The notes under the pieces: generated by a model
Told to the model about the DNA's origin: nothing
The model's input: the letters and a program-made list of their open reading frames with translations, nothing else
Databases searched by the model: none
Made by a program: the position numbers and the translations under genes
IMG/VR virus record: IMGVR_UViG_3300027419_000014
DNA from: a virus
Length of the DNA: 40,579 nt
Direction: 5' to 3' (one strand)
Shown: in pieces, positions 786 through 18,181 of the stretch
Numbering within the stretch: the first letter of the stretch is position 1
How the letters are laid out: every line of letters begins with the position of its first letter

Positions 786-1331
786 TCAATCTTCAAAATT
801 TATGCTATCCTCAACAACTTCCATAGCTTTATCAATTGGAACATACTCCATTTTATCCGTAATTACATGAGATACCACGGTCTGACATTTAAAAATTAAA
901 CCTTTTTGTAATATCTCAAGACCACCTTTAAAAGTAAATTCTGGGGTCTCATCGTGATTTAAAACATTTGCTATTCCTGACCAGATTAAATAATCTGGTG
1001 AAACGATTAATTCTCTTGCAGTTTCATATGGTATAAATAAAGCTGCATCGTTTGATCTTTCATGTTTTGCAGCTGTAAAAAAGTTCATGTAATAATCAAA
1101 ATCTGTTAAAGTCCCGCTTCTTACGCTTCCATTCGGCTGTCGTTTTGTTACTCTATAAGTTGATTGAATATAAGGATATTTAACCGGTTGCGCTACAGTA
1201 CCATATTTATAAATCGGGCAAGTAATATCTTGCGCAATTAAAGCAGTGTTTAACACCTTATTCATTTCATAATATTTTTCATTCAGTGTCATTTTCTGCG
1301 CCTGAAATTGGCATTTCATCACATGTCGCAA
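786..1331 (-). CDS. Hypothetical virion protein; possible tail completion/terminator protein by position
   Basis: 181-aa ORF directly upstream of the sheath gene. It overlaps the preceding ORF by 53 nt, so an internal Met (M14 or M23) may be the real start. No motif recognised. Confidence 0.3.
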   Translation of the reverse strand: MRHVMKCQFQAQKMTLNEKYYEMNKVLNTALIAQDITCPIYKYGTVAQPVKYPYIQSTYRVTKRQPNGSVRSGTLTDFDYYMNFFTAAKHERSNDAALFIPYETARELIVSPDYLIWSGIANVLNHDETPEFTFKGGLEILQKGLIFKCQTVVSHVITDKMEYVPIDKAMEVVEDSINFED

Positions 1332-1982: not shown

Positions 1983-3467
1983 CTATGCGTGTACATCAAA
2001 AACAAGATCAAAAACCTGACCCCGCTGTATAACCATCGGGCCGCCAAAAGTAAGGCTTGCCGCATAAGATGATCTTTGCTCACTTACTACACCTGTAGTT
2101 ACTCTAGGAGTAGCTGTCGCCATAGGAGAAAGAACACCTTTTAAACCTGTAGGTGCGCCGTGTACAACTGCAACAATGTGATTGTACTGCTGAGTACCCA
2201 GAGAGTTTATTCTTGCGTTGAGAAGACCTGAAGTTTTAATTTCAATGTCCCCAATAGTTCCACCGACTGCAAGTTTAAGAGCTTCGCCGAGAGTTCTGTT
2301 AAATGTTCCAGTAGAAAGATATTGAACCAATATCGCATAAAGTCCGGTAGGAACATAAAGAACAACTTTTTTACTAGTTGCTACGTTTGTTAGGGCAATC
2401 AGATTAAGAAGTCTGACAATATCCTGGTAAACATACATTGGGTTTGCTGCTGCTGACAAAGGAGCAATAAGAGCCGCATCATCTGCCGGTTTGTAATTGT
2501 AATTTTTAATCTGCTGTACAAGTTTAGTCGGATTTGAAGCCCAATCGGCAGCTGTAGCCAACGCCGGAGAAGCTGTTCCTGCTGTTCCCAGAGCAAGCAT
2601 AATTGAAGGTGAAAGTAACCCATATTGTCCGGTCTCGCCGTCAAAAGCAGATGCGCCTGTACCGTCTATAAATATTCTTTCAACTGCCTGCATAATCTGC
2701 TGATCAATAACGCTGAAAAGCTGATTCTGGAGAATAAACCCCGCCAGAGCTGGAGCGATTGAGCGAGCATAACCCATAAGAGCCTGCTGCTGTTCGTTTT
2801 CAATTATAAAGCCCTGTGATTCTGTATGAGCTGTTTTAAACTCATTGATAAGAGAGATTTGAGCCAGATTGTTAGAATATGTTCTGTCGTCTCCATAAGG
2901 ATTAAGATCTCCAAGTCTTCCTTTAGATGAACCACTTGATTCTACACGGGGTATTCTGAATCTTGAAATCGCCCCAGCGGAAGCCGCTACTTCTGCGGAA
3001 AGCTGAACCGCGTCCCCTTCCTCAATAAAAGACTGAGTAAAAGTCAATTGTTCAAAAAGCTGTTCTGCAAGTTGCTGAAGTCCTGCAAATTGGTCATATC
3101 CGGGATTTCCAAAATATGCATTAAGTGCAGTGGCTTCGGCAGTCTCAAAAGAGCATCCGGCCTTCATTGCATTTTGTGCGATTGTATTAAGCTTGCCACG
3201 GAGTCCATGTGCCATATCAACAATATGGTCAATTGAAGCACCGCCAAATTTTATTTGTAAACTTTTAAATGCGTCATTGTGACCTTTAGAAACTGGATTC
3301 GCCACATCAAGAAGAGCATTATGCAATGCAATATATTCTTTACGTCCTGCAATTTCATTAATAGGAGCAAGCCCTTCTGTTCTTTTTGAATCCGCATAAC
3401 CATTTCTGATTACAAGCCAATTCCTGAAATTCTGTTCTGCTATTTGCTGAGATGTTATTTTTTTCAT
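1983..3467 (-). CDS. Major capsid protein (probable)
   Basis: 494 aa and one of the largest ORFs of the head module. It follows the scaffold and decoration-like genes and precedes the connector genes. No motif verified by eye. Confidence 0.55.
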   Translation of the reverse strand: MKKITSQQIAEQNFRNWLVIRNGYADSKRTEGLAPINEIAGRKEYIALHNALLDVANPVSKGHNDAFKSLQIKFGGASIDHIVDMAHGLRGKLNTIAQNAMKAGCSFETAEATALNAYFGNPGYDQFAGLQQLAEQLFEQLTFTQSFIEEGDAVQLSAEVAASAGAISRFRIPRVESSGSSKGRLGDLNPYGDDRTYSNNLAQISLINEFKTAHTESQGFIIENEQQQALMGYARSIAPALAGFILQNQLFSVIDQQIMQAVERIFIDGTGASAFDGETGQYGLLSPSIMLALGTAGTASPALATAADWASNPTKLVQQIKNYNYKPADDAALIAPLSAAANPMYVYQDIVRLLNLIALTNVATSKKVVLYVPTGLYAILVQYLSTGTFNRTLGEALKLAVGGTIGDIEIKTSGLLNARINSLGTQQYNHIVAVVHGAPTGLKGVLSPMATATPRVTTGVVSEQRSSYAASLTFGGPMVIQRGQVFDLVFDVHA

Positions 3468-3479
3468 TGTTTACCGTCC

Positions 3480-4019
3480 TTATATCACTAAACTTGTAAG
3501 ACGGGCAAAACAATAGCCTGACTTAAGTTGATTAGTTGTCTGCTGGCCGGGTGTAGTGAAAAATACATAACCAGGGAAAGCAACATTACCGGAAGATGTC
3601 AGAGTAAGAAGTCCGGCTGGAGTTACATAAGAAACTTTTCCAGATACAGGATTGTAACTTGCAAGCATTGGGGCTGCTACAACCGCATCGAGGTCTATAA
3701 TCATAGCCGCCATATCACCGCTTGAATATTCACCAACTGTCTGATTAATTGTTGCACTTGTCTGAGAAGCAGCTTCCAGAAAGCCTACTCCAATTATAGA
3801 ATAAGTATTTGTGCCATCATTATAAGCAGCTGCACCAAGAACAATTTTCATTCCTATGCCGACAAATTCCTGAAGCGTTACAACTGATCCTATCGGGGCT
3901 GTAGTTACTCCTGCACCTGAAGGAATTACAAACGGTACATTATCAACTCTGCGAATGTCAAATTGTACCGCGCCTTTTTTCGGGTTTGTTTCCCCTATTC
4001 CAAGTGTTATACCGGGCAT
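3480..4019 (-). CDS. Hypothetical head protein (decoration or minor capsid candidate)
   Basis: 179-aa Gly/Ala/Thr/Val-rich ORF between the scaffold and capsid genes. Confidence 0.3.
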   Translation of the reverse strand: MPGITLGIGETNPKKGAVQFDIRRVDNVPFVIPSGAGVTTAPIGSVVTLQEFVGIGMKIVLGAAAYNDGTNTYSIIGVGFLEAASQTSATINQTVGEYSSGDMAAMIIDLDAVVAAPMLASYNPVSGKVSYVTPAGLLTLTSSGNVAFPGYVFFTTPGQQTTNQLKSGYCFARLTSLVI

Positions 4020-5212
4020 TAGAACACCTCCGAAGTATGTGAATTAGCCGCACTATCCGGCTTTTTTTCTACCATTTCCGCATATTTCGCATTGACCGCT
4101 ATAATACGGGCTGCCGGGTCAATTTCCTTAATCCCTAGCATATTTGCAAGAGATACAAAAGAAGGTGTTTTTGAACCGAAGTCGATATTAAGAGCAGTAC
4201 CTACAGCCGCTACAAGAGCCTGTGTTGGCTTGGCATTTTCAAGAGTAGTATCTTCTTTGCTATCCTTTGATTTTTTTTCTTTTCCCTCTTCCGCTTCTTC
4301 TTCTGGTGTTTCCTTACCTTCATAAGCTGCGTTTTCAGCTTCTTTTTTCTTCATTTCTTCATTTTCATCTTCAAGGTTTTTTACCTTGTTCTTCAGTTCT
4401 TTAATCTCGTCTTCTGCATTGCGAGCAGCCAGTTCTTCCTTGACCGCATTTTTAACGATTGCGGCTATTTGTTCGGGGGTCATTTCTGCCATACGTTTTT
4501 CCTCACTTTTAGAATCCTCACTTTTATAAATTCCGTCAGTATTTACTACTACGGCGTTATTCACTGGAACAGTATTTCTAACTTGTATTTTATTTTCGGG
4601 ATCTCTTACGCTTTGTGTTAATGCTATATGAGTTACTTTTAAATCATGCGCAATCGCGTTGTATTCCTGTCCGTCTGGAGTTACACCTGATTTTACTTCA
4701 GCTATAAAATCAATAAAAGCACTTGCTCCAAATTTATCTTTATCAATATTTTCATTGATATAATCAACTTGATCTTTTCCTTTAACAACTCCGTCAAGTA
4801 TAGCCGCCTTCTTAATTTCATCATAATGAACTGTAGAAGCCCATCCGTCTATTTTTTTATTTTTTTCATTCGTTGTTGCGCCATGTCCAACTCCTACCAC
4901 AAAAGGAGCGAGTTCAAGATTTTTAAGAAATTTTTTAGATGAAACTTCCTCTGGAGGATAATAAAGATGAATATTTTTACCGGCAAGTCGCGGGTCATTT
5001 ATTTTAAGTTCTTCGGGAGTATAATTTAAAACCCCAACATGTAAAGCTGGTACGGTAATTTTTAATGATGCTATTCTTTCGGAAGTATCATTTTTAACAC
5101 TATACCGAATTTCTGGAATTCGTTTTGTATACTTTCGTTTAACCGGTTTTGGGGCAGGTTTATTTAAAATTCGTCTGATTATTGATTGTATATTCATAGT
5201 TTTTAATCTCAA
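4019..5212 (-). CDS. Scaffolding protein, possibly a protease-scaffold fusion
   Basis: 397 aa with a globular N-terminal half and a highly charged Glu/Lys coiled-coil C-terminal half (EEKRMAEMTPEQIAAIVKNAVKEELAARNAEDEIKELKNKVKNLEDENEEMKKKEAE...). It sits between the Mu-F-like and capsid genes. Confidence 0.45.
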   Translation of the reverse strand: MRLKTMNIQSIIRRILNKPAPKPVKRKYTKRIPEIRYSVKNDTSERIASLKITVPALHVGVLNYTPEELKINDPRLAGKNIHLYYPPEEVSSKKFLKNLELAPFVVGVGHGATTNEKNKKIDGWASTVHYDEIKKAAILDGVVKGKDQVDYINENIDKDKFGASAFIDFIAEVKSGVTPDGQEYNAIAHDLKVTHIALTQSVRDPENKIQVRNTVPVNNAVVVNTDGIYKSEDSKSEEKRMAEMTPEQIAAIVKNAVKEELAARNAEDEIKELKNKVKNLEDENEEMKKKEAENAAYEGKETPEEEAEEGKEKKSKDSKEDTTLENAKPTQALVAAVGTALNIDFGSKTPSFVSLANMLGIKEIDPAARIIAVNAKYAEMVEKKPDSAANSHTSEVF

Positions 5213-6518: not shown

Positions 6519-6845
6519 TTATTTCATCTCTTCTACTTCTTTTGAGCCGTTTATATTCTCTTGTTTATATTCAGGGTCTAAATCCTTTAAAAGAGATTCA
6601 AACTCGCCTATATGTGTTTTTTCTTCTTTGATCACATCCAATAATACTTTTTTAACCAATGGATTTTCTGCCATATCAGCCAAAGAAGTATAAAGATTTA
6701 TTGCGCTTATCTCTGATGCAATAGCCGTTCTCAATATTTGGCTGCAATCAGTAGAACCGGATTCAATTTCAGTAGTAGTAGATAAGTTTAAAAATGATTC
6801 TTTTACTGCGTTCTTTATAGTCATTGTTAATAAGTATTCATTCAT
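6519..6845 (-). CDS. Ferritin-like / rubrerythrin-like half-domain protein (EncFtn-type)
   Basis: 108 aa. ILRTAIASEISAINLYTSLADMAENPLVKKVLLDVIKEEKTHIGEFESLLKDLDPEY carries E45-x6-Y52-x22-E75-x2-H78. This is the two-helix di-iron motif and spacing I recall for encapsulated ferritins. Confidence 0.5.
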   Translation of the reverse strand: MNEYLLTMTIKNAVKESFLNLSTTTEIESGSTDCSQILRTAIASEISAINLYTSLADMAENPLVKKVLLDVIKEEKTHIGEFESLLKDLDPEYKQENINGSKEVEEMK

Positions 6846-6857
6846 GCCATTCCTCTT

Positions 6858-8468
6858 TTAAGATAATGGGCGAGTAAGAATTGATTTTTTACTTTCACCT
6901 GATCTAGGATTATCTTGAATTTCTTCAACTTTAACTAATTTTACATCTTCTGATAGAAGTCCTTCATCTTTAAACGCTTTTTCAAGTTCCGGATAACTTG
7001 CCATTCTTATGAGCGTTTCTACTTTTTTACTGTTTAAATCTGCTTTTTCTTGTTCTGTCTCATCATATATATTTTCAAATACAATGTCAAATTCATCTTC
7101 TTCAATTCCCATTTCTGATAATTCTTTATCATACTGGATCATTGTATTGACCATAAATCTAAGTAAAGGCTCTATCATATTTACTTGATACCGAGAGTTA
7201 ATATTTTCGTTAGTACTTGCAATTTGAAAAGCGGCTTGGCTATACGCTGCATTGCCCCCTCCAAAGAAGTATTCCGGCGCGCACCCGGTGACAGAACCTA
7301 TAAAATCTTTAAAAACTGTGGCAATATCCGCTGTACCTGGAGAAATATTATTATTTAATATGTCGAGAGTCATTCCTTTAGCTTGCTCAATCGGGGTACT
7401 GACACCCATAGTCTGCGAAAGTCTGTTTAATTGAGCTTTCATTTTTGCAAGCATTGTATCAGTACTTATTTCTCCTTCCATTTTTTCAATTATAATTTGG
7501 GAGCGAACAAGCAAAATTTTAAGAATATGAACGTATAAATTCCATGCTTCTGCAGCTGTTCTTAACTGAGGGAGTCTGTTTAAACCTACCCCAAAAAGAG
7601 GCTCAAATCCAGGGCAAGTAAAAAATGCCGAAACTCCATGTTTAAGCTGTGCCCCCATGCAGTAAATGTCCCCCACTTTCATAGGAGAATAAGGCTGTGT
7701 AACTCCTGAATAAGAGCTACCCATTGCATAAGCAAATTGAGTGTCATTAAAAACATTGAAGGTCACGGAGTCCCCCCGCTGAATAGGTACTACGAGAGAA
7801 CCCCGCGGAGAGAGGAGGGAATAAAAGAGGGCATCTTTAATAACGTGTTTTATTTTACGCTTATGAATTAAAGTTTCAACTGCTTCATTAAATTTCTTAT
7901 TCTTGGTCTCGATTGTAGGAAATTTCTTTAAAGCTATTGATAAAGGTCTGTCAACCATTTCGGCCAGTGTCGGCATTGCAAGGTAATCTATATAATTTAT
8001 ACGGTAAGGGGAATAATCAATATAAGACATGAGGGTTGAAGGATCACCAGTCACATTGATCTTTACCGCACCGTCTGCAAAAACTGAGTTAAAAGCCGAT
8101 GTGAATTTACTTTCTGCTACCTGACTTGCTTTAACCAGTTTATCTTTTAAATCTTCTGTAGCGTTTATAATTTCTGTGATATATGGTTTAAATTCACCAC
8201 TTTTTATATTCTTAACCCGATCATGTTCCCGCTGCGCATAGGCATATACAAGATTATTCTGATTTATATTATTATTGCTGTTTTGGCTGTTTTTTATTTC
8301 TTGAAGTTCCCGCATTGCGCTGTTTATAATTCCATCGATATTGTGGACTTCAAAGGCGTTTCTTATTTCAGTTACAAGCTGTTTATTCTGTACAACTTCA
8401 TTTTCGGGAAGTAAGGCCAGTTTTTCTACAGCGTCAACCATTAAGGATAGCTGTTTATATGCGTTCAT
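6858..8468 (-). CDS. Portal protein
   Basis: 536 aa and the largest ORF of the head module. It lies upstream of the Mu-F-like gene, and its size and acidic C-terminus are typical of portals. Confidence 0.65.
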   Translation of the reverse strand: MNAYKQLSLMVDAVEKLALLPENEVVQNKQLVTEIRNAFEVHNIDGIINSAMRELQEIKNSQNSNNNINQNNLVYAYAQREHDRVKNIKSGEFKPYITEIINATEDLKDKLVKASQVAESKFTSAFNSVFADGAVKINVTGDPSTLMSYIDYSPYRINYIDYLAMPTLAEMVDRPLSIALKKFPTIETKNKKFNEAVETLIHKRKIKHVIKDALFYSLLSPRGSLVVPIQRGDSVTFNVFNDTQFAYAMGSSYSGVTQPYSPMKVGDIYCMGAQLKHGVSAFFTCPGFEPLFGVGLNRLPQLRTAAEAWNLYVHILKILLVRSQIIIEKMEGEISTDTMLAKMKAQLNRLSQTMGVSTPIEQAKGMTLDILNNNISPGTADIATVFKDFIGSVTGCAPEYFFGGGNAAYSQAAFQIASTNENINSRYQVNMIEPLLRFMVNTMIQYDKELSEMGIEEDEFDIVFENIYDETEQEKADLNSKKVETLIRMASYPELEKAFKDEGLLSEDVKLVKVEEIQDNPRSGESKKSILTRPLS

Positions 8469-8957: not shown

Positions 8958-9416
8958 TTAATCCTCTATTTCATAAGCAAGATTTTTTAGCATAAGTCCT
9001 GTATCGTATAAAGGCTTGCCAACACCTTTTGATCCTTTTAATTCTTTCGCCCTTGTAGTTGACGGCGCGTTTCCCTGTAATTCTGAACCGCTTTTAATAA
9101 TTCTCTTTGCTTCAGCGATTGACTGCTGACCGATTGCCGTTAAAAATACCCGTTCTATTTGTTTAAGATCTCCCTGATTATAAAGAGCATAATTCTTGAC
9201 ATTTTCAAGATAAGCCTTTGCATGTTTTGCGATTTCTTCCGAAGACAATATTTTTTCAGCGGCTATCTGGAAAATAGGCCGGGGAGGGATAGTTTCTGTC
9301 CCGTAATTATTATAAGCCATAACATCGCTTAATTTAGTACCGTCTTCATATGTTGCGGCTTTAACGCCAAGTCGGACTTCCATTAATTCATTACCGTTGC
9401 CCCTATAATATGTCAA
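8958..9416 (-). CDS. HK97 gp10-like neck/tail-component protein (tentative)
   Basis: 152 aa. YGTETIPPRPIFQIA resembles the GT..iP.RPf signature of the HK97 gp10 family. Confidence 0.4.
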   Translation of the reverse strand: MTYYRGNGNELMEVRLGVKAATYEDGTKLSDVMAYNNYGTETIPPRPIFQIAAEKILSSEEIAKHAKAYLENVKNYALYNQGDLKQIERVFLTAIGQQSIAEAKRIIKSGSELQGNAPSTTRAKELKGSKGVGKPLYDTGLMLKNLAYEIED

Positions 9417-9675
9417 CCCTCACTATACTATTTATTCCAGTTGCCATAATATAAACATCAATTCTAGAACTGGAAGAAATTATTTCTAAATTTGTATTCT
9501 GAAAAATAAGGACACCTTCACTTTGCTTTGTGGGTGCTACCCCCCCTGTTATTTTATAAGTATAAAAATATTTATTTGTCTCAAAACCTGTTTTCCTGAT
9601 ATTCCCGCTAAGAATGCTCGTCGCAACTTTTGTCCATACTTCTTTTGTGCATGTTGCAAATGTTGGATTTGCCAT
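9403..9675 (-). CDS. Hypothetical protein
   Basis: 90-aa ORF, co-directional and tightly packed with its neighbours. Confidence 0.3.
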   Translation of the reverse strand: MANPTFATCTKEVWTKVATSILSGNIRKTGFETNKYFYTYKITGGVAPTKQSEGVLIFQNTNLEIISSSSRIDVYIMATGINSIVRVDIL

Positions 9676-12585: not shown

Positions 12586-13950
12586 TTATCTCCTTTTCAG
12601 AATATTCAATGCTTTGACATATTCAGCTATTATTTCAGATGTTCCTAAAGCTTCCACTCCCCCGGCTAAACTATCCGCTTCATCATCATGGTCAACATCC
12701 TTATGATAGCGTGAAACTCCGATACTAAAAGCCTGCTGCGTTCCCTCTAATATTCTCATACTTTCTTTTTGCGATGTTATTGTTGCCATGATTCTTTCAT
12801 GCTTATTTCTACTTTGATGTTTCCATGTCCACAGGTTTTTAACTTCATATTTAGCTTCGTCCTGTTTAAAAGCATCTATAAAGAATATAGTTGAATCCCC
12901 TAATTGACTTTCAAATACGGTTTCTATTGGAGTATATATATTTAAAAAGTCAAGCATTTCTATTCTTATCTGATGATCCGCAATAGAATGTTGCCAGCTC
13001 ATACCGGTAAATATAATTAAATCTTTACTTACGCCCACAATAGCCACAGATGTTCTATCAGTACCTTTCTTTTCTGAAAAGCTTGAATCTATAAAAGCAA
13101 GGCAATATTGGCAATCCCATAAGGGAACCGACATAAAAGCCCCCAGGGTTTCCCTGTCTTCTACATGCTTTAACATGTAGTTACACATCCATTCAGAATT
13201 TGGCAATCTTCCTTGCCGAGCAGCAATTTCTTTCATTTCATTCTCGGATAAATTTACAGTCCCAAAGGGGAATTGGCGCTCTTCAAATATTTCTTTTGGA
13301 AATATTGAAAAAACATCGCTTTCATGCCAGGGTGTGCCGGATAAACGAGTCTGCCCTAATGGATCAATAAGATTGTCTAATTCTTGGAAATAAGCAATAG
13401 TCCATTTTCTTTCTGCTGCGCTGTATCTATCATCTATGGTAACAATATCGTCCGACCATATATAATCAAAGTGCGCTCCGGTTATAGAAGCTCCTACTCC
13501 TACCGCTGACATAGAAGGATCAGGAGTAATTGTACGTTTAAAAGAAAAATTAGTACGTTCCGATGACCATATTTTTGTTGAGGCATTAACTATTTCCCAT
13601 CTTGAATATAAGTATAAACGAATAACATCAGAGGTAAGCATATGTGTTTGAATGGTTTTAAGTATAGCAGAGGCCAAATCCCCCGTTTTTCGCACTATAA
13701 GCAACCTCATATTCGGGTAGCAAAAAAAAAGCAAAATCATAGCTACGATTCCGCTTGTTGTTTTATAACTACCTCTATGGGCTTGTAATACGTCAAACTT
13801 CTTATATTTTAAGAAAATCTTTATCCATTTACCGTGAGTTTCTGTTAATTTATCATAGCCAAGTAAATGACCGAATTCATGGGGATTTTCTAACCAGTCA
13901 TCTAACGCGGATACATGATCAATCTTTTGTAGTGATGCCATGTTTTTCAA
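12586..13950 (-). CDS. terL: Terminase large subunit
   Basis: 454 aa. It has a Walker A-like AHRGSYKTTSG, a Walker B-like FDYIWSDDIVT and a C-terminal nuclease-like AFIDSSFS...DHDDEADSL. It directly follows terS. Confidence 0.85.
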   Translation of the reverse strand: MKNMASLQKIDHVSALDDWLENPHEFGHLLGYDKLTETHGKWIKIFLKYKKFDVLQAHRGSYKTTSGIVAMILLFFCYPNMRLLIVRKTGDLASAILKTIQTHMLTSDVIRLYLYSRWEIVNASTKIWSSERTNFSFKRTITPDPSMSAVGVGASITGAHFDYIWSDDIVTIDDRYSAAERKWTIAYFQELDNLIDPLGQTRLSGTPWHESDVFSIFPKEIFEERQFPFGTVNLSENEMKEIAARQGRLPNSEWMCNYMLKHVEDRETLGAFMSVPLWDCQYCLAFIDSSFSEKKGTDRTSVAIVGVSKDLIIFTGMSWQHSIADHQIRIEMLDFLNIYTPIETVFESQLGDSTIFFIDAFKQDEAKYEVKNLWTWKHQSRNKHERIMATITSQKESMRILEGTQQAFSIGVSRYHKDVDHDDEADSLAGGVEALGTSEIIAEYVKALNILKRR

Positions 13951-14509
13951 GTACGGATTTTACAGCGGTATCCTGATCATTCAGCATATCAAATTTAACG
14001 CTTACTTTCTGCTCTTTCATTCCTAAAATGCTTGTAAGTTCAGCAAGAGAACCTTTTTTATCATGGAGCTCAATTTCAATTATATCAGTGGCGGTTGTTA
14101 CTTCCTCATCTTCAGAATAGCTTTCTTTAATCCTTTTTATCTTAATTTTCTTTATAGCCCTGGTATCTATCTTATCAAAGTCCCTGGGAATTAACATACC
14201 ATCTTTATATTCCATGACATTATTTATATCAGAATAACCGAGGGCTTTTAATTCATCGAAAATAGAACCAATCTCTTTTTCCTTTTCGTTCCATATTTCA
14301 TTGATTTTTTCCTTAATTGCCTCTCTTATGTTAGTATTTGTTAGTAATTTGCTTGCGTTTACTTTGGCAGTATCATAATCAATAGGTGATTCATCACTAT
14401 CATAAGCCTCTAAATATGCCTTAGTAGCTACCCTGCACCGGATGTAATTAAGAACAAAGTCCTTTTGTCTATCGTTAAGTTTATCAAATGCTTTTATATC
14501 TTCAGACAT
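13919..14509 (-). CDS. terS: Terminase small subunit
   Basis: LNDRQKDFVLNYIRCRVATKAYLEAYDSD...KVNASKLLTNTNIREAI matches the Terminase_2 N-terminal HTH pattern. The gene lies immediately upstream of terL. Confidence 0.75.
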   Translation of the reverse strand: MSEDIKAFDKLNDRQKDFVLNYIRCRVATKAYLEAYDSDESPIDYDTAKVNASKLLTNTNIREAIKEKINEIWNEKEKEIGSIFDELKALGYSDINNVMEYKDGMLIPRDFDKIDTRAIKKIKIKRIKESYSEDEEVTTATDIIEIELHDKKGSLAELTSILGMKEQKVSVKFDMLNDQDTAVKSVLEKHGITTKD

Positions 14510-14510
14510 A

Positions 14511-14663
14511 TTATATTCCTTTTAATCTTTTAGCAGTACCGATCAAATCATAAAAATTAAGATGAGTATAACCGGATATTTTATGGCATTCCGGTTCAAG
14601 TATATATCTGACATAGTATTTAGTTTTAAGTTCTTTTAATCTGTTCAATTGATTTTCAGACAT
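14511..14663 (-). CDS. Small hypothetical protein (50 aa)
   Basis: Hand-translated as MSENQLNRLKELKTKYYVRYILEPECHK...KRLKGI. Its stop lies 1 nt before the terS ATG, and its start overlaps the stop of the upstream micro-ORF. Confidence 0.3.
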   Translation of the reverse strand: MSENQLNRLKELKTKYYVRYILEPECHKISGYTHLNFYDLIGTAKRLKGI

Positions 14664-14799
14664 TTTTAACATCACTCTCAATTTTGTTCACAATAGATTC
14701 ATAATATTCTCTACAAAATATTCTTGCAAATGACGCTCTTAAAATAGACGACCAGGTAATTTTAAAATTTATTTCAACTGTTAATTTATCTATCTTCAT
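14656..14799 (-). CDS. Small hypothetical protein (47 aa)
   Basis: Hand-translated as MKIDKLTVEINFKITWSSILRASFARIF.... It overlaps both neighbouring micro-ORFs in the manner of translational coupling. Confidence 0.25.
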   Translation of the reverse strand: MKIDKLTVEINFKITWSSILRASFARIFCREYYESIVNKIESDVKNV

Positions 14800-14932
14800 T
14801 CTTAACCTTTTTCATATAAACGTATTTATTAGCTTTAGAGCAATAAGACTTGATTCTCTTAGCATTGCTATATCTGCGAAATTCAGCTTTACATTCAGGG
14901 CATTGGTAAATGTTTATTTCTGATTCAGCCAT
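14786..14932 (-). CDS. Small zinc-ribbon-like protein (48 aa)
   Basis: Hand-translated as MAESEINIYQCPECKAEFRRYSNAKRIKSYCSKANKYV..., with a CxxC motif. Confidence 0.3.
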   Translation of the reverse strand: MAESEINIYQCPECKAEFRRYSNAKRIKSYCSKANKYVYMKKVKNEDR

Positions 14933-15028
14933 TACGATAGCATCCTTTTATAATATATTATATACTACAAAATAAACATTCCAGCAAAAAGAAAAATAAA
15001 AAATATTACCCACTCTAAAAACATCATA

Positions 15029-15175
15029 TCAATACTTCTTTCCGTGCTTATATTCTGTTATCTTATAACCATTTTTACAACCAACTATTTTTGGATTATC
15101 TTTTAATATACAAATCGGTTTAATAAAAGCACAATTTCTACAAACATTGTACAATCCACCATTTTTACCGATCAT
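15029..15175 (-). CDS. Small Cys-rich protein (48 aa)
   Basis: Hand-translated as MIGKNGGLYNVCRNCAFIKPICILKDNPKIVGCKNGYK.... Its start overlaps the stop of ORF 15172..15372. Confidence 0.3.
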   Translation of the reverse strand: MIGKNGGLYNVCRNCAFIKPICILKDNPKIVGCKNGYKITEYKHGKKY

Positions 15176-15372
15176 ATCTTATTCCCTTTATCATCATATC
15201 CGTAATTATAAGCCTTGTTTAATAGCTCAACGCCATGAATTAACAAGTCTTCAACTTCTTTTCCTGTATGATTCTTTAAATTAAAAAACTTTTTGGTAAA
15301 TATATCCTTTTTACTTTCTGTCTTAAAGTAAATCATTTTAGGGTAATATTTATAATCTGATGGTTTTTTCAT
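15172..15372 (-). CDS. Hypothetical protein
   Basis: 66-aa ORF with an AAGGA ribosome-binding site. It begins 13 nt downstream of the tRNA-like gene. Confidence 0.35.
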   Translation of the reverse strand: MKKPSDYKYYPKMIYFKTESKKDIFTKKFFNLKNHTGKEVEDLLIHGVELLNKAYNYGYDDKGNKI

Positions 15373-15385
15373 AATTTCCTTTTAT

Positions 15386-15488
15386 TTGCAGGGGAGGGAG
15401 TCGAACCCTCACACAAAAAACATTTACAAGGCGAAGATTACAACCTTTATATTTGTTTTTTGGCGTTTCCCAATTGCGCCACCCCGCA
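15386..15488 (-). tRNA. tRNA-like gene with canonical acceptor, D- and T-arms but about 30 extra nt in the anticodon arm; identity undetermined
   Basis: Hand fold of the minus strand. The acceptor stem is UGCGGGG/CCCUGCA. U8 is present, the D-arm is GCG/CGC with a GGG loop, and the T-arm is GAGGG-UUCGACU-CCCUC. 51 nt lie between the D- and T-arms, forming an 8-bp A-U stem plus an inner hairpin. No CCA is encoded. Confidence 0.5.
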
Positions 15489-15501
15489 TTTTAATTGTTA
15501 T

Positions 15502-15618
15502 TGAGAGAGACAGGATTTGATACCTGCATGAGACATTAATTTGACTTCTCTTCCTATCATGCGACCCACTGCCGGTCTTTTTTCAGGGTAGGCGTCTTTA
15601 CTCTTCCGCCACTTTCTC
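15502..15618 (-). ncRNA. Second, more degenerate tRNA-like RNA
   Basis: The acceptor is GAGAAAG/CUCUCUC with one A.C mismatch. U8 is present and the D-stem is GGCG/CGCC as in the neighbouring RNA. The T-stem is GCAGG/CCUGU with an 8-nt loop UAUCAAAU. 63 nt replace the anticodon/variable region. Confidence 0.3.
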
Positions 15619-15752
15619 AATAATTCTAGTATCGGGTCATGCACCAGAAAACATGTCAAACAAGACAATAATTATAGGAGGTAAATAATATTGTCTTCCA
15701 CCCTATAATTAACAAAATATTATTTATAATAAAAAGTCAAGAGTTTTTCTTA

Positions 15753-15780
15753 TTGACATTTAAAAATATTTAATTATTGT
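15753..15780 (+). promoter_or_regulatory. Candidate sigma70-type promoter for the plus-strand cassette
   Basis: TTGACA at 15753..15758, a 16-nt spacer, then TATTGT at 15775..15780. A GGAGG ribosome-binding site precedes the ATG at 15801. Confidence 0.4.
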
Positions 15781-15800
15781 CTGCTTGGAGGTTATGAATT

Positions 15801-16043
15801 ATGAGTAAAGCAAAAGATATGTATTTAAAAGTAATGGGAAATATTGATTCATCTTCGATGACTGGGGAATCTATTGAAAATTATGTTGAAGAACTAGAAT
15901 CAAATAAAAAAGAATTGATAGAATTCGCAAGAGATAATTTAAAATCAATTTGTATCAATTGCAGTAATAATGTAATAAAAAATTGCTTATGTGAAATGAA
16001 GCAATATAATATGAAAATACTTAAAAAATATGAGGCCGAATAA
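15801..16043 (+). CDS. Hypothetical small acidic protein, first gene of the plus-strand cassette
   Basis: 80 aa with a GGAGG RBS. Its stop shares one nt with the next start (TAATG). Confidence 0.4.
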   Translation: MSKAKDMYLKVMGNIDSSSMTGESIENYVEELESNKKELIEFARDNLKSICINCSNNVIKNCLCEMKQYNMKILKKYEAE

Positions 16044-16567
16044 TGAATGAAACTTGCCAAAAACTTCACGATACCCTTATAGACTTAGATCAATTCAATC
16101 CTGATTCTCTTCTGGTAAAATCTATAATGAATGTAAGAAAATGTAATCAGGATTATGCTCTTCAACTCGCTGGGAAACATTGTAATATGATATCTACTTA
16201 TGGAATACTTTTTGCTCTCGATTATATTTCAATGAGCTATGAAGACTTTTATTCGTTGTGCTTTTTAAAAGGTTATTGTAAAGAAAACGGATATTTATAT
16301 TTAACAAAGCCAAAATTATTTACAGCTCTTGAAATTTCAGCTAAATTGATAGAATGCCCGTCTTTGCCTGATAATATTCAACCTGAAGAACTCTATCAAG
16401 TCCCTATCAATAATAAGCATCATTGGACAGCTTGCGGCGTTGACGATGATCTGTCTATACTTCTTTTTGACACTCATGCCGGTTATCGTGGAGAATACGG
16501 CGGCGAAATGACATCCGCTTTTAAAGTTCATGGAGATAAACCGGATTATTATAATCATATATTTTAA
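16043..16567 (+). CDS. Hypothetical protein with papain-fold (C39/C58-like) cysteine-peptidase-like motifs
   Basis: 174 aa. QLAGKHCNMISTYG gives Q-x5-C, and KHHWTACGVDDDLSILLFDTHAGY gives H...D-x-x-x-G. This arrangement resembles clan CA peptidases. Read by eye only. Confidence 0.3.
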   Translation: MNETCQKLHDTLIDLDQFNPDSLLVKSIMNVRKCNQDYALQLAGKHCNMISTYGILFALDYISMSYEDFYSLCFLKGYCKENGYLYLTKPKLFTALEISAKLIECPSLPDNIQPEELYQVPINNKHHWTACGVDDDLSILLFDTHAGYRGEYGGEMTSAFKVHGDKPDYYNHIF

Positions 16568-17272: not shown

Positions 17273-18181
17273 CTATTTTGTCAGTTTATACTTTGCTGAA
17301 TATTCGTCATTATACTTATAATCTTCCCACCAGACAGAATTGAAAACAGAAGTTATATTTACCCACCGACTAAATCTTTTTTGTTCTTTTGTTGGTTCTT
17401 CATTAGTTTTAAAATTTCTGTATGGCTGGCAAAACGGTTCGCAGTATAATCCTTTAATTTTTTTGACTCTTTCCATTGCTTCTGGAACTTCTTTAACAAT
17501 CGTATAGACAAAATACCGTGACGGTCTGACATTTCTCCATCTTAAATTAGTTACTGCTTTTTGCAATGATTCAAATGAAAATTCGTTATCACAAGCCAAT
17601 CGAACTGGATGAAGCCATTTAACTTTAGACAATAGTTTTGCCATAGAATCATCAATTAATCTTGAATCCAGTCCTTGATTAAAATCTACCTTTATTTTTA
17701 ACTCAATTATCTTCTCAATCTGCTTAATCCCGTAGTCGCTTGCTAGTACGTTGTTGTCCATTAAAACCGCAGATTTGTGTTCGCCAATAAAATGATCAAT
17801 ACTTGAATAGGATTTTATAGTTCCCTCTTTTTCTGGCACTATACACCAACTGCATTTATTTGGGCACCCTCTAGTCAAGAATCCATAAGCGTGTTCGCAA
17901 TCATATAAAGAATAATCTGGAATCATATTGTCTATTTCTTGGGGCAATTTAGATTTTATATTATATCCAGTTCCTCCGATTATTGTTTCACCAAAACAAG
18001 TAAAATTTATATTTGTATCGTGAGTAAATGTAAATACCTTAGATTTATAAACATTGTTATACCAAGAATTTTCTTTAACAAATTCCACAGTATCACCAAA
18101 AGATTTATGATAAGCACTTATTTTCATAAGTGCAAGATTAGGGAAATTTTTATTGTCTACATCTATCAATCCTATTTTCAT
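17273..18181 (-). CDS. Radical SAM enzyme with an N-terminal Rossmann/B12-binding-like domain
   Basis: LTRGCPNKCSWCIVPEKEG carries the CxxxCxxC [4Fe-4S]/SAM motif at about residue 105. The N-terminus MKIGLIDVDNKNFPNLALMKISAYHKSFGDTVEFV resembles the N-domain of class B radical SAM enzymes. Confidence 0.7.
   Translation of the reverse strand: MKIGLIDVDNKNFPNLALMKISAYHKSFGDTVEFVKENSWYNNVYKSKVFTFTHDTNINFTCFGETIIGGTGYNIKSKLPQEIDNMIPDYSLYDCEHAYGFLTRGCPNKCSWCIVPEKEGTIKSYSSIDHFIGEHKSAVLMDNNVLASDYGIKQIEKIIELKIKVDFNQGLDSRLIDDSMAKLLSKVKWLHPVRLACDNEFSFESLQKAVTNLRWRNVRPSRYFVYTIVKEVPEAMERVKKIKGLYCEPFCQPYRNFKTNEEPTKEQKRFSRWVNITSVFNSVWWEDYKYNDEYSAKYKLTK

Follow-up and report, generated by a model that had tools for sequence, protein, structure and literature searches.

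Phage tRNA genes are by now known as weapons against tRNA-cleaving immunity, and phage-encoded RNAs which look like tRNAs without taking part in decoding have stood unexplained for decades. The latter are represented by rnaC (species 1) and rnaD (species 2), two stable RNAs of the tRNA cluster of phage T4 with unknown roles (PMC3014915). In this work we analyzed the virus record IMGVR_UViG_3300027419_000014 of the IMG/VR database, a stretch of 40,579 nucleotides referred to as the window in the following, and describe two adjacent tRNA-shaped RNAs on its minus strand, RNA1 (15386..15488, 103 nt) and RNA2 (15502..15618, 117 nt). Neither of them can decode. Judged from their sequences they are mutually unrelated tRNA derivatives, RNA1 with a body of the tRNA(CAU) type and RNA2 with that of a tRNA-Leu. 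RNA2 belongs to a class of expanded elements, named UAUCRAAU after its T loop, which is apparently an undescribed phage RNA family; no description of the class was found in the literature.

Several phage tRNAs act against defence systems, namely T5 tRNA-Tyr against retron-Eco7, T6 tRNA-Tyr against Septu and T5 tRNA-Lys against PARIS; Septu and retron-Eco7 cut the variable arm of class II tRNA-Tyr, and OLD removes anticodon arms (PMC13096335). RNA1 and RNA2 resemble these anti-defence tRNAs in being tRNA-shaped and in the alteration of the variable or anticodon region, which in the anti-defence tRNAs matters in an arms race with nucleases. However, the anti-defence tRNAs decode and replace or outnumber the cleaved host tRNA, whereas RNA1 and RNA2 cannot decode. 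A second relevant system is the engineered tRNA scaffold of Ponchon and Dardel, in which acceptor, T and D arms combined with any insert in place of the anticodon arm are processed and stable in Escherichia coli (PMC3753655). This architecture fits RNA1 and, more loosely, RNA2, but the scaffold is man-made and shows the capacity of the architecture rather than the role of natural RNAs.

Structure of RNA1 and RNA2

RNA1, read from 15488 to 15386, has the sequence UGCGGGG-U-GGCG-CAAUUGGGAAA-CGCC-(48 nt)-GUGU-GAGGG-UUCGACU-CCCUC-CCCUGCA-A. Its 7-bp acceptor stem (UGCGGGG/CCCUGCA with one G.U pair; 5' strand 15482-15488, 3' strand 15387-15393) is followed by U8 (15481), the D arm (about 15462-15480) and, 52 nt further on, the textbook T arm GAGGG-UUCGACU-CCCUC (15394-15410). 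The discriminator A (15386) is unpaired and CCA is not encoded. The D arm has the stem GGCG/CGCC, which in tRNA numbering corresponds to GCG/CGC, and A14, A15 and G18G19 (as GGG) in the loop; all nucleotides of core and elbow are kept (U8, A14, A15 with U48, G18G19, U54U55C56 and A58). According to sequence and fold, the anticodon arm is replaced by an expanded arm (15415..15461), in which an 8-bp A-U stem (AAAAAACA/UGUUUUUU) surrounds 31 nt with a further helix (AAGGU/GCCUU), internal loops and a loop of 10 nt, UGUAAUCUUC. Overall, this arm is an interrupted helix of ~16 bp with a 10-nt loop, and it contains the string UUGUAA twice.

As a structure RNA1 is real. RNAfold gives a long-armed cloverleaf as its minimum free energy structure (-32.5 kcal/mol, z = -2.5). 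With introns allowed (-i) at the default threshold, it was the sole ARAGORN call in the 40.6-kb window, and 40 dinucleotide-preserving shuffles gave no call at the same setting. The last 24 nt, that is, the T arm and the acceptor 3' strand, are identical to three phage genes in IMG/VR which ARAGORN assigns to tRNA-Met(CAU), from which the body of RNA1 can be assigned to the tRNA(CAU) type.

RNA2, read from 15618 to 15502, has the sequence GAGAAAG-U-GGCG-GAAGAGUAAAGA-CGCC-(62 nt)-GCAGG-UAUCAAAU-CCUGU-CUCUCUC-A. The 7-bp acceptor stem GAGAAAG/CUCUCUC (15612-15618 and 15503-15509) includes one A.C mismatch and is followed by U8 (15611) and the D arm (15591-15610) with the stem GGCG/CGCC and the loop GAAGAGUAAAGA, which is devoid of G18G19. 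The T arm GCAGG-UAUCAAAU-CCUGU (15510-15527) has a loop of 8 nt with an inserted A. As in RNA1, the discriminator A (15502) is unpaired and CCA is not encoded. Between the D and T arms lie 62 nt; alignments, shared k-mers and folds delimit a hypervariable interior (15528..15590) in place of the anticodon and variable arms, which is predicted to form two hairpins and, by shared k-mers, has UGAAAAAAGACCGGCA in common with a leader hairpin element of related phages. ARAGORN finds RNA2 only at the relaxed setting -ps90, at which shuffles give 1.2 hits per window. RNA2 alone is therefore not significant and could be due to chance, so that its case rests on homologues and covariation, in addition to the leucine-type D arm described below.

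An anticodon stem of 5 bp with a 7-nt loop (U33, R37) was found neither in RNA1 nor in RNA2, whether in the sequence or in the folds. ARAGORN in its default mode reported 0 genes in the whole window, and the Rfam tRNA model matched nothing in it at the gathering threshold (29 bits) or at E<=10; a permissive search gave only a T-arm match of 14 bits. If an intron is forced upon RNA1, the only solution puts it at position 34/35, with U37, and leaves the anticodon AAA on a stem consisting entirely of A-U pairs.

The preliminary description of this locus, made from the DNA letters, had regarded the two RNAs as unlikely to be ordinary decoding tRNAs, a view that is upheld by these searches. Its coordinates and structural details also agree with ours, for RNA1 including the G.U pair, U8, the GGG of the D loop, the T arm, the 8-bp A-U stem around 31 nt and both UUGUAA strings, and for RNA2 including the A.C mismatch, U8, GGCG/CGCC, the 8-nt T loop and the lack of CCA. 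The "normal tRNA elbow" ascribed to both applies to RNA1, whereas the canonical elbow (G18G19 and a 7-nt UUCRANY T loop) is missing from RNA2 and, apart from a GG dinucleotide kept in L081, from its class. For RNA2 the T loop had been remarked upon, but not the D loop. Also, the two RNAs had been treated as one kind, which is at odds with a tRNA(CAU)-type body in one and a tRNA-Leu body in the other.

The UAUCRAAU Class and Its Relation to tRNA-Leu

Relatives of RNA2, designated here by L numbers, were reached via the divergent 174-aa gene beside the RNA locus and via terS. Close homologues occur in L013, L021 and L020, the last with two copies. Among these close phages the first 12 nt of RNA2 are 92-100% identical and the last 26 nt 96-100%, compared to a DNA identity of 75-82% in the neighbouring 174-aa gene, whereas the interior (46-87 nt) aligns at ~50%, which means no real similarity. 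This graded pattern of scaffold, flanking gene and interior argues for selection on the top half only.

For the search beyond close relatives IMG/VR was scanned with the D-arm motif GTGGCGGAAG-N3-7-AGACGC, which yielded at least 119 loci. Since we estimate that ~100 chance matches are to be expected for a pattern of that size, only hits closed by an acceptor and a T stem were kept, and all family counts given here are among the matches listed. Of normal-size elements (80-87 nt) with this motif, 17 of 18 were identified as tRNA-Leu by ARAGORN, and the D arm GUGGCGGAAG-N(3-7)-AGACGC can therefore be considered diagnostic of tRNA-Leu. RNA2 carries it in the form GUGGCGGAAGAGUAAAGACGC. It shares with class II tRNA-Leu the D arm GUGGCGGAAG...AGACGC, U8, G9, A73, an acceptor stem of 7 bp and a T stem of 5 bp, and differs in having neither an anticodon stem-loop nor G18G19 and in its 8-nt T loop UAUCAAAU. 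On the basis of these sequence features RNA2 is judged to derive from a class II tRNA-Leu. Leucylation in E. coli needs A73, G18G19, A15-U48 and contacts of the D loop with the T loop, and neither the anticodon nor the variable arm (PMC9976931). Of this identity set RNA2 retains only A73, with G18G19 absent and an A inserted into the T loop, which makes its leucylation doubtful.

The UAUCRAAU class was defined by the leucine-type D arm, a T arm with a 5-bp stem and the 8-nt loop UAUCRAAU that directly adjoins an acceptor stem of 7 bp, and over 40 nt of inserted sequence separating the D arm from the T arm. RNA2 and nine further copies show every one of these features. The class thereby comprises at least 10 copies on 9 contigs with 6 different acceptor stems: RNA2 of the window, the two copies of L020 and one copy each in L013, L021, L081, L100, L102, L108 and L127. 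The T loop (UAUCAAAU or UAUCGAAU) is invariant although it sits on different stems. All UAUCRAAU copies are expanded (94-180 nt), whereas 18 of the 23 copies with a canonical T loop measure 80-87 nt (expansion versus T-loop type among the matches listed, Fisher P = 3e-5 by copy and 0.012 by lineage). Across the class the stretch from the D to the T arm varies from 42 to 126 nt, with unrelated sequence even between close relatives; neither an insert motif common to the members nor a conserved exon sequence flanking the inserts was found.

Nine copies were included in the scaffold alignment; L013 was left out on account of an inserted D loop. Standard pairs occupy 99.3% of the cells in the three stems, a percentage that is partly built in, as members were chosen by the pairing of acceptor and T stem. 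This choice imposes neither the common T loop nor the compensatory changes. Such changes occur in 8 of the 15 stem pairs, four of them among the seven of the acceptor. None of 500 shuffles reached these values of pairing and compensation, and slid registers were 36-50% paired. Positions without variation in this alignment are the pairs G1-C72, G7-C66 and G53-C61, U8, G9, the D stem, the D-loop strings GAAG and AGAC, and the T loop; eight of the nine sequences have A73. The D loops are mostly without G18G19, L081 keeping a GG dinucleotide, and in L081 and L108 ACCA is encoded after the acceptor stem.

Distant relatives in L062/L071, L067 and L068 keep the acceptor sequence GAGAGAG and the D arm and possess other T arms. 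The element of L062/L071 measures only 72 nt with a plain hairpin in the middle, and those of L067 and L068 measure 170 and 175 nt. In the homologous leader position of L011 only a minihelix of acceptor and T arm is left. The second copy of L020 stops 3 nt before a genuine tRNA-Gln(UUG) (61.9 bits, Rfam), and the L068 element is separated by 10-20 nt from a downstream cluster which comprises four tRNAs together with a tmRNA (2766-4765; tmRNA 56 bits). The ten contexts considered, those of seven class members and of L062, L067 and L068, are all intergenic and co-oriented with the flanking genes. The class member of L127 (IMGVR_UViG_3300037067_009374, element 6836-6986, oriented; T loop UAUCGAAU) lies between QueC-like and GTP cyclohydrolase/QueF-like genes and thus in a cluster for 7-deazaguanine (queuosine-type) biosynthesis.

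In minimum free energy folds with flanks, the 3' flank AAUAA of RNA2 (15497..15501) pairs with its 5' flank UUAUU (15619..15623) and lengthens the closing helix to 12 bp. Compared with shuffled flanks, the 5 extra pairs of the window group have P=0.05, the 6 extra pairs of L062 P=0.0008 and the 12 extra pairs of L068 P=0.0014; since the flank sequences differ among these three, the extension covaries. It is absent in other lineages and in the L020 copy abutting tRNA-Gln.

For RNA1, homologues were detected neither in IMG/VR nor in 50,697 phage genomes or 1.6 Mb of collected phage loci. In exact-pattern scans the RNA1 D arm and the RNA2 3' end were absent from IMG/VR and the RNA2 3' end from GTDB genomes, and a blastn search of the locus and related leaders against the 50,697 phage genomes gave no match. 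TerL relatives from IMG/VR (~62% identity) are without these RNAs, a lone ARAGORN "hit" among them falling in coding sequence. A promoter-anchor scan of a metagenome collection returned one contig, and a 17-mer from the pseudoknot element described next gave almost only chance matches. A home-made descriptor of acceptor plus T arm produced ~1.5 false hits per shuffled window and served solely as a pointer.

Further elements were seen in the related leaders. L020 (878-995, minus strand) and L021 (3482-3599, minus strand) contain a third tRNA-like RNA of 118 nt with the acceptor GGCCAUU/ACUGGCC and the canonical T arm GGGGG-UUCGAUU-CCCCC, without a D stem and with a weak match to the tmRNA domain (23.6 bits); L011 has a minihelix at the same place (923-965). 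A conserved pseudoknot-like element, GCCUUACCCUUACAGAACGAACACUGAGAGGCUGAAAGAAGGGUGAC, is found in L020 (~800-860, minus strand), L021 (~3400-3465, minus strand) and L011 (985-1050), followed by a boxB-like hairpin (GCCGG-GAAAGA-CCGGC). The sequence UGAAAAAAGACCGGCA inside the interior of RNA2 is a fragment of this pseudoknot-like/boxB-like element.

Comparison with Known tRNA-Like RNAs

Comparable to the RNAs of the window, T4 rnaC has a canonical T arm adjoining its 3' end (CCGGG-UUCGAAU-CCCGG) and long internal hairpins; rnaC and rnaD are likewise small and non-coding, and their genes are arranged in line with those of phage tRNAs. Sequence similarity is missing, however, rnaC is devoid of a leucine-type D arm and of the UAUCRAAU loop, and the T4 RNAs are experimentally known stable species whereas those of the window are predictions. 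Among the hypotheses put forward in the preliminary description, a new class of small stable phage RNA comparable to those of T4 fits best, given that rnaC also has a T arm and lies in a tRNA cluster.

The tRNA-like domain of transfer-messenger RNA (tmRNA) likewise keeps the acceptor and the T arm, has no anticodon and carries a large insert between its halves, and phage-encoded tmRNA exists, as seen in L068. RNA1 and RNA2, in contrast, possess a D stem but no tag reading frame, pseudoknots or G3.U70. An identity as tmRNA was rejected: the match of the Rfam tmRNA model is confined to 17 nt in the T arm of RNA1 and reaches 14 bits, with the threshold at 47, and the tmRNA calls of ARAGORN at -ps70 are low-threshold artefacts that span RNA1 and RNA2 together.

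YrlA RNAs are comparable as non-decoding RNAs with mimicry of T and D arms. As Chen et al. reportedly described in 2014, their ends are located within the Ro/Rsr-binding stem, at the "anticodon" side, the stem resembling an acceptor is closed, and some are said to be phage-encoded. The termini of RNA1 and RNA2 lie at the acceptor stem, which is the opposite topology; with no Rfam match and no Rsr-like gene among the scanned proteins, YrlA was rejected as well.

Three mobile-element explanations were likewise discarded. RNA1 and RNA2 are each complete in their 5' and 3' halves, and an integrase was not seen among the scanned window proteins, which speaks against the remnant of a phage attachment site (attP). 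A miniature inverted-repeat transposable element (MITE) or other element with terminal inverted repeats, prompted by the flank pairing, does not agree with the constant co-orientation with transcription and the asymmetric tRNA-like ends, and is further disfavoured as most lineages have no flank extension. A retron msr/msd was rejected for want of a reverse transcriptase among the scanned window proteins.

Rfam, applied with gathering as well as permissive thresholds to the window and 20 related loci, assigned no family to RNA1, RNA2 or their relatives and detected only genuine tRNAs and the tmRNA elsewhere. No class element or relative reached an Rfam threshold; the RNA2 copy of L021 scored 19.3 bits with the tRNA model with a 69-nt insertion. 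As standard tRNA finders and Rfam miss all of them, these elements are currently unannotated in phage genomes. The clear signature of the family (leucine-type D arm, UAUCRAAU loop and variable insert) makes it accessible to searches, alignment and experiments.

Genomic Context of the RNA Locus

The window is the genome of a tailed phage, derived from JGI metagenome 3300001866, with nearly every gene on the minus strand. Along the direction of transcription, genes for an exonuclease, an anti-repressor, a DnaD-like loader and RusA are followed by a radical-SAM protein and a divergent gene pair on the plus strand. The radical-SAM gene (phrog_9298, E = 1e-91; 17273-18181, minus strand) lies 1.7 kb upstream of the RNAs. 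After the divergent pair comes a gap of ~430 nt containing RNA1 and RNA2, then five small open reading frames (ORFs), terS (13919-14509, minus strand) at the end of this string, terL (12586-13950, minus strand), a glycosyltransferase gene and the portal and head genes. RNA1 and RNA2 are hence placed inside the leader of the packaging (late) operon, after the replication and RusA genes and directly upstream of terS/terL. This position lends no support to the "early" transcript assumed in the preliminary description.

The string of small ORFs is headed by an ORF of 66 aa (15172..15372, minus strand), for which a protein family match was not found. As had been described, 13 nt separate RNA1 from its ATG at 15372; this spacer (15373..15385, minus strand) holds the Shine-Dalgarno sequence AAGGA. 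A terminator scan of 14400-16200 predicted none, including the stretch between RNA1 and the first ORF. In L020 a homologue of the 66-aa ORF comes directly after the leader RNAs. L023, a contig cut at this place, has a tRNA-like 3' end preceding the homologue at the same distance as RNA1.

Between the divergent gene pair and the RNA leader lies a 32-nt stretch, CAGACAATAATTAAATATTTTTAAATGTCAAT (15752..15783), whose sequence shows no difference among the window, L013, L020 and L021, whereas DNA identity in the adjacent gene is only 75-82%. This stretch probably represents a divergent promoter or operator region; a TTGACA-16-TATTGT match is located on the plus strand at 15753-15780. A strong hairpin of ~16 bp, UAAUUAUAGGGUGGAAG...CCUCCUAUAAUUA, followed by a U-rich stretch (15668-15712, minus strand), lies between this region and RNA2. 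This hairpin, which is not present in related leaders, could be an attenuator or terminator.

Fifty proteins of the window were scanned with PHROGs, and 10 of them adjoining the RNA locus with Pfam as well. In these proteins the scans gave no match to reverse transcriptase, integrase, Rsr, RNA ligase or CCA-enzyme. A related 5-kb contig was binned in a metagenome-assembled genome of Spirochaetota, which is weak evidence on the host.

Possible Functions

We tentatively favour, with a probability of about 45%, the reading that RNA1 and RNA2 are non-decoding tRNA derivatives which are excised by host tRNA enzymes and whose conserved top half works as a mimic. Both RNAs would be co-transcribed with the downstream genes. 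Recognition of a tRNA by RNase P, RNase Z and the CCA-adding enzyme depends on its acceptor/T-arm half. Host RNase P would cut at the 5' end, and an RNase Z-type 3' endonuclease and then the CCA-adding enzyme would finish the 3' end. These cuts would set free stable small RNAs and trim the messenger 13 nt before the first start codon, just ahead of its ribosome-binding site. Excision as stable RNAs is suggested by the recognition of the acceptor/T-arm half by these enzymes together with the scaffold chimeras (PMC3753655). Unable to pair with codons, the RNAs would stay out of decoding, and the conserved top half could act as a tRNA mimic that occupies a host tRNA-binding factor, for instance a tRNA-targeting defence nuclease, a toxin or a synthetase, with a lower half that would be free to change or driven to change. 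A decoy role would be plausible. From the invariant, non-canonical elbow it seems that selection acts on something beyond a cleavage signal. Were the family to bind a host factor, it would represent a natural equivalent of the engineered tRNA scaffold and a new way of manipulating the host by means of RNA.

Several points weigh against this proposal. We infer transcription, processing or cleavage, CCA addition, stability and the binding partner alike, and the neighbourhoods of different lineages share no conserved protein family that would offer a candidate partner. For the RNAs, complementarity to transcripts of the phage was not detected, matches of at least 12 nt in the window being A/T runs only. 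The paired percentage of the stems is, as stated, in part a product of member selection, and as RNA1 is a singleton without homologue, selection on it is not demonstrable. In the GAGAGAG subgroup, including RNA2, leader and trailer pair over 5-12 further bp. In tRNA precursors the 5' leader does not usually pair with the 3' trailer. Such pairing may hinder RNase P or RNase Z and might instead mean excision by RNase III or a role in cis. Finally, recognition of RNA2 as a tRNA is not assured, as it has lost the G18G19/T-loop contacts which are used by RNase P and E. coli LeuRS (PMC9976931).

A more far-reaching version of the mimic proposal, which we put forward as speculation and would not rate as likely, is that the UAUCRAAU RNAs, and perhaps RNA1, form a widespread, unrecognised counter-defence of phages. 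The remodelled elbow would keep them off the ribosome and the lower half would serve as bait or inhibitor. Targets would be nucleases of the anticodon or variable arm (OLD, Septu, PARIS or retron-type) or toxins acting on the acceptor end, and the rapid turnover of the inserts would then be the trace of an arms race.

Among the alternatives, pure processing punctuation survives best, although we consider it unlikely. Here, signals for RNase P and RNase Z would separate the leader from the mRNA, the released RNAs would be functionless, and the cuts would set the 5' end and thereby the stability or translation of the packaging-operon message. The punctuation model of mitochondrial tRNAs is a precedent. 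The position of RNA1 13 nt ahead of the first start codon with no terminator between, the tRNA-like 3' end of L023 at the same distance from the homologous ORF, the bare minihelix of L011 at this position and the non-conserved interiors are all in line with it. Yet a plain tRNA or minihelix would suffice for this purpose, and neither the invariant UAUCRAAU T loop and D loop across six acceptor lineages nor the relatives within tRNA clusters, with no ORF directly downstream, are explained. Should the elements be processing signals and nothing else, they would show that phages use host tRNA enzymes to shape their late messages.

We regard it as rather improbable that the tRNA part is a carrier for a functional, variable insert such as an aptamer, an RNA mimic or an antisense RNA. 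The architecture corresponds to that of the engineered scaffold (PMC3753655), and the inserts are predicted to form hairpins and differ even among close relatives. However, no insert motif is common to the members, significant complementarity between the inserts of the window RNAs and the genome of the phage was not seen, the RNA2 insert in part looks less like a designed module than like a recombined fragment of a neighbouring leader element, and the 72-nt form of L062 is nearly cargo-free.

Alternatively, RNA2 could be a leader element acting in cis (an antiterminator, riboswitch or mRNA stabiliser) that is not released at all. The closing helix of 12-19 bp in the GAGAGAG subgroup with its covarying extension would suit such a role, as would the location of the element shortly downstream of the conserved promoter region in five loci, the terminator-like hairpin upstream of it in the window and the BoxB-like hairpins of related leaders. 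We nevertheless hold little expectation of it, for other members are without the helix extension, have A73 and sometimes an encoded CCA, and adjoin tRNA genes instead of promoters. Moreover, no riboswitch or leader family of Rfam was matched, and conservation is missing from the central region, in which one would look for a ligand pocket.

Just as improbable, in our judgement, is that the RNAs are degenerating remnants of a former phage tRNA cluster which have acquired insertions and are being lost. This would account for the singleton RNA1, for a leader scrambled by recombination in which modules come and go between relatives, and for normal tRNAs at equivalent places in relatives. RNA2, on the other hand, has a nearly perfectly kept scaffold (92-100%) on a diverged background (75-82% in the gene), compensatory changes in 8 of 15 pairs across lineages and a recurrence in at least nine contigs, which contradicts a decaying pseudogene, an outcome that the preliminary description had named as a possible refutation. 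For RNA1 the retention of all tertiary-interaction nucleotides and of perfect stems can be put forward, a weak argument with a single sequence.

Functional tRNAs from which the inserts are removed by self-splicing or by a phage or host enzyme are very improbable and were rejected, for although ARAGORN can force an intron model and other leucine-type elements contain 180-230 nt of inserted sequence, conceivably group I introns, the inserts in question, with 28-126 nt, are below the size of a group I intron and match no intron family, conserved exon flanks are missing across the UAUCRAAU family, and removal of the insert restores no canonical anticodon arm but only the AAA anticodon with its all-A-U stem and U37.

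Further tRNA-Like Elements

The leucine-type elements with long inserts just mentioned, one of 306 nt in L156/L175 and one in L179 (13453-13727), are tRNA genes whose inserted 180-230 nt may represent group I introns.

A second recurrent class with the leucine-type D arm, mostly of 92-116 nt, has the form GUCACUG-U-GGCGGAAGUAGAAGACGC ... GAGUGG-UGCRAUY-CCACUC-CAGUGAC. It was seen in twelve loci (L082, L086, L088, L094, L110, L113, L140, L147, L148, L154, L169 and L179), is not called by ARAGORN and gave no Rfam match in the three elements looked at (L082, L088 and L094).

L024 encodes a pair of tRNA-like RNAs on the minus strand (9316-9402 and 9568-9667) with the same acceptor AGUCAGG and the same T arm, combined with different D arms and odd anticodon regions; the two score 45 and 35 bits with the Rfam tRNA model.

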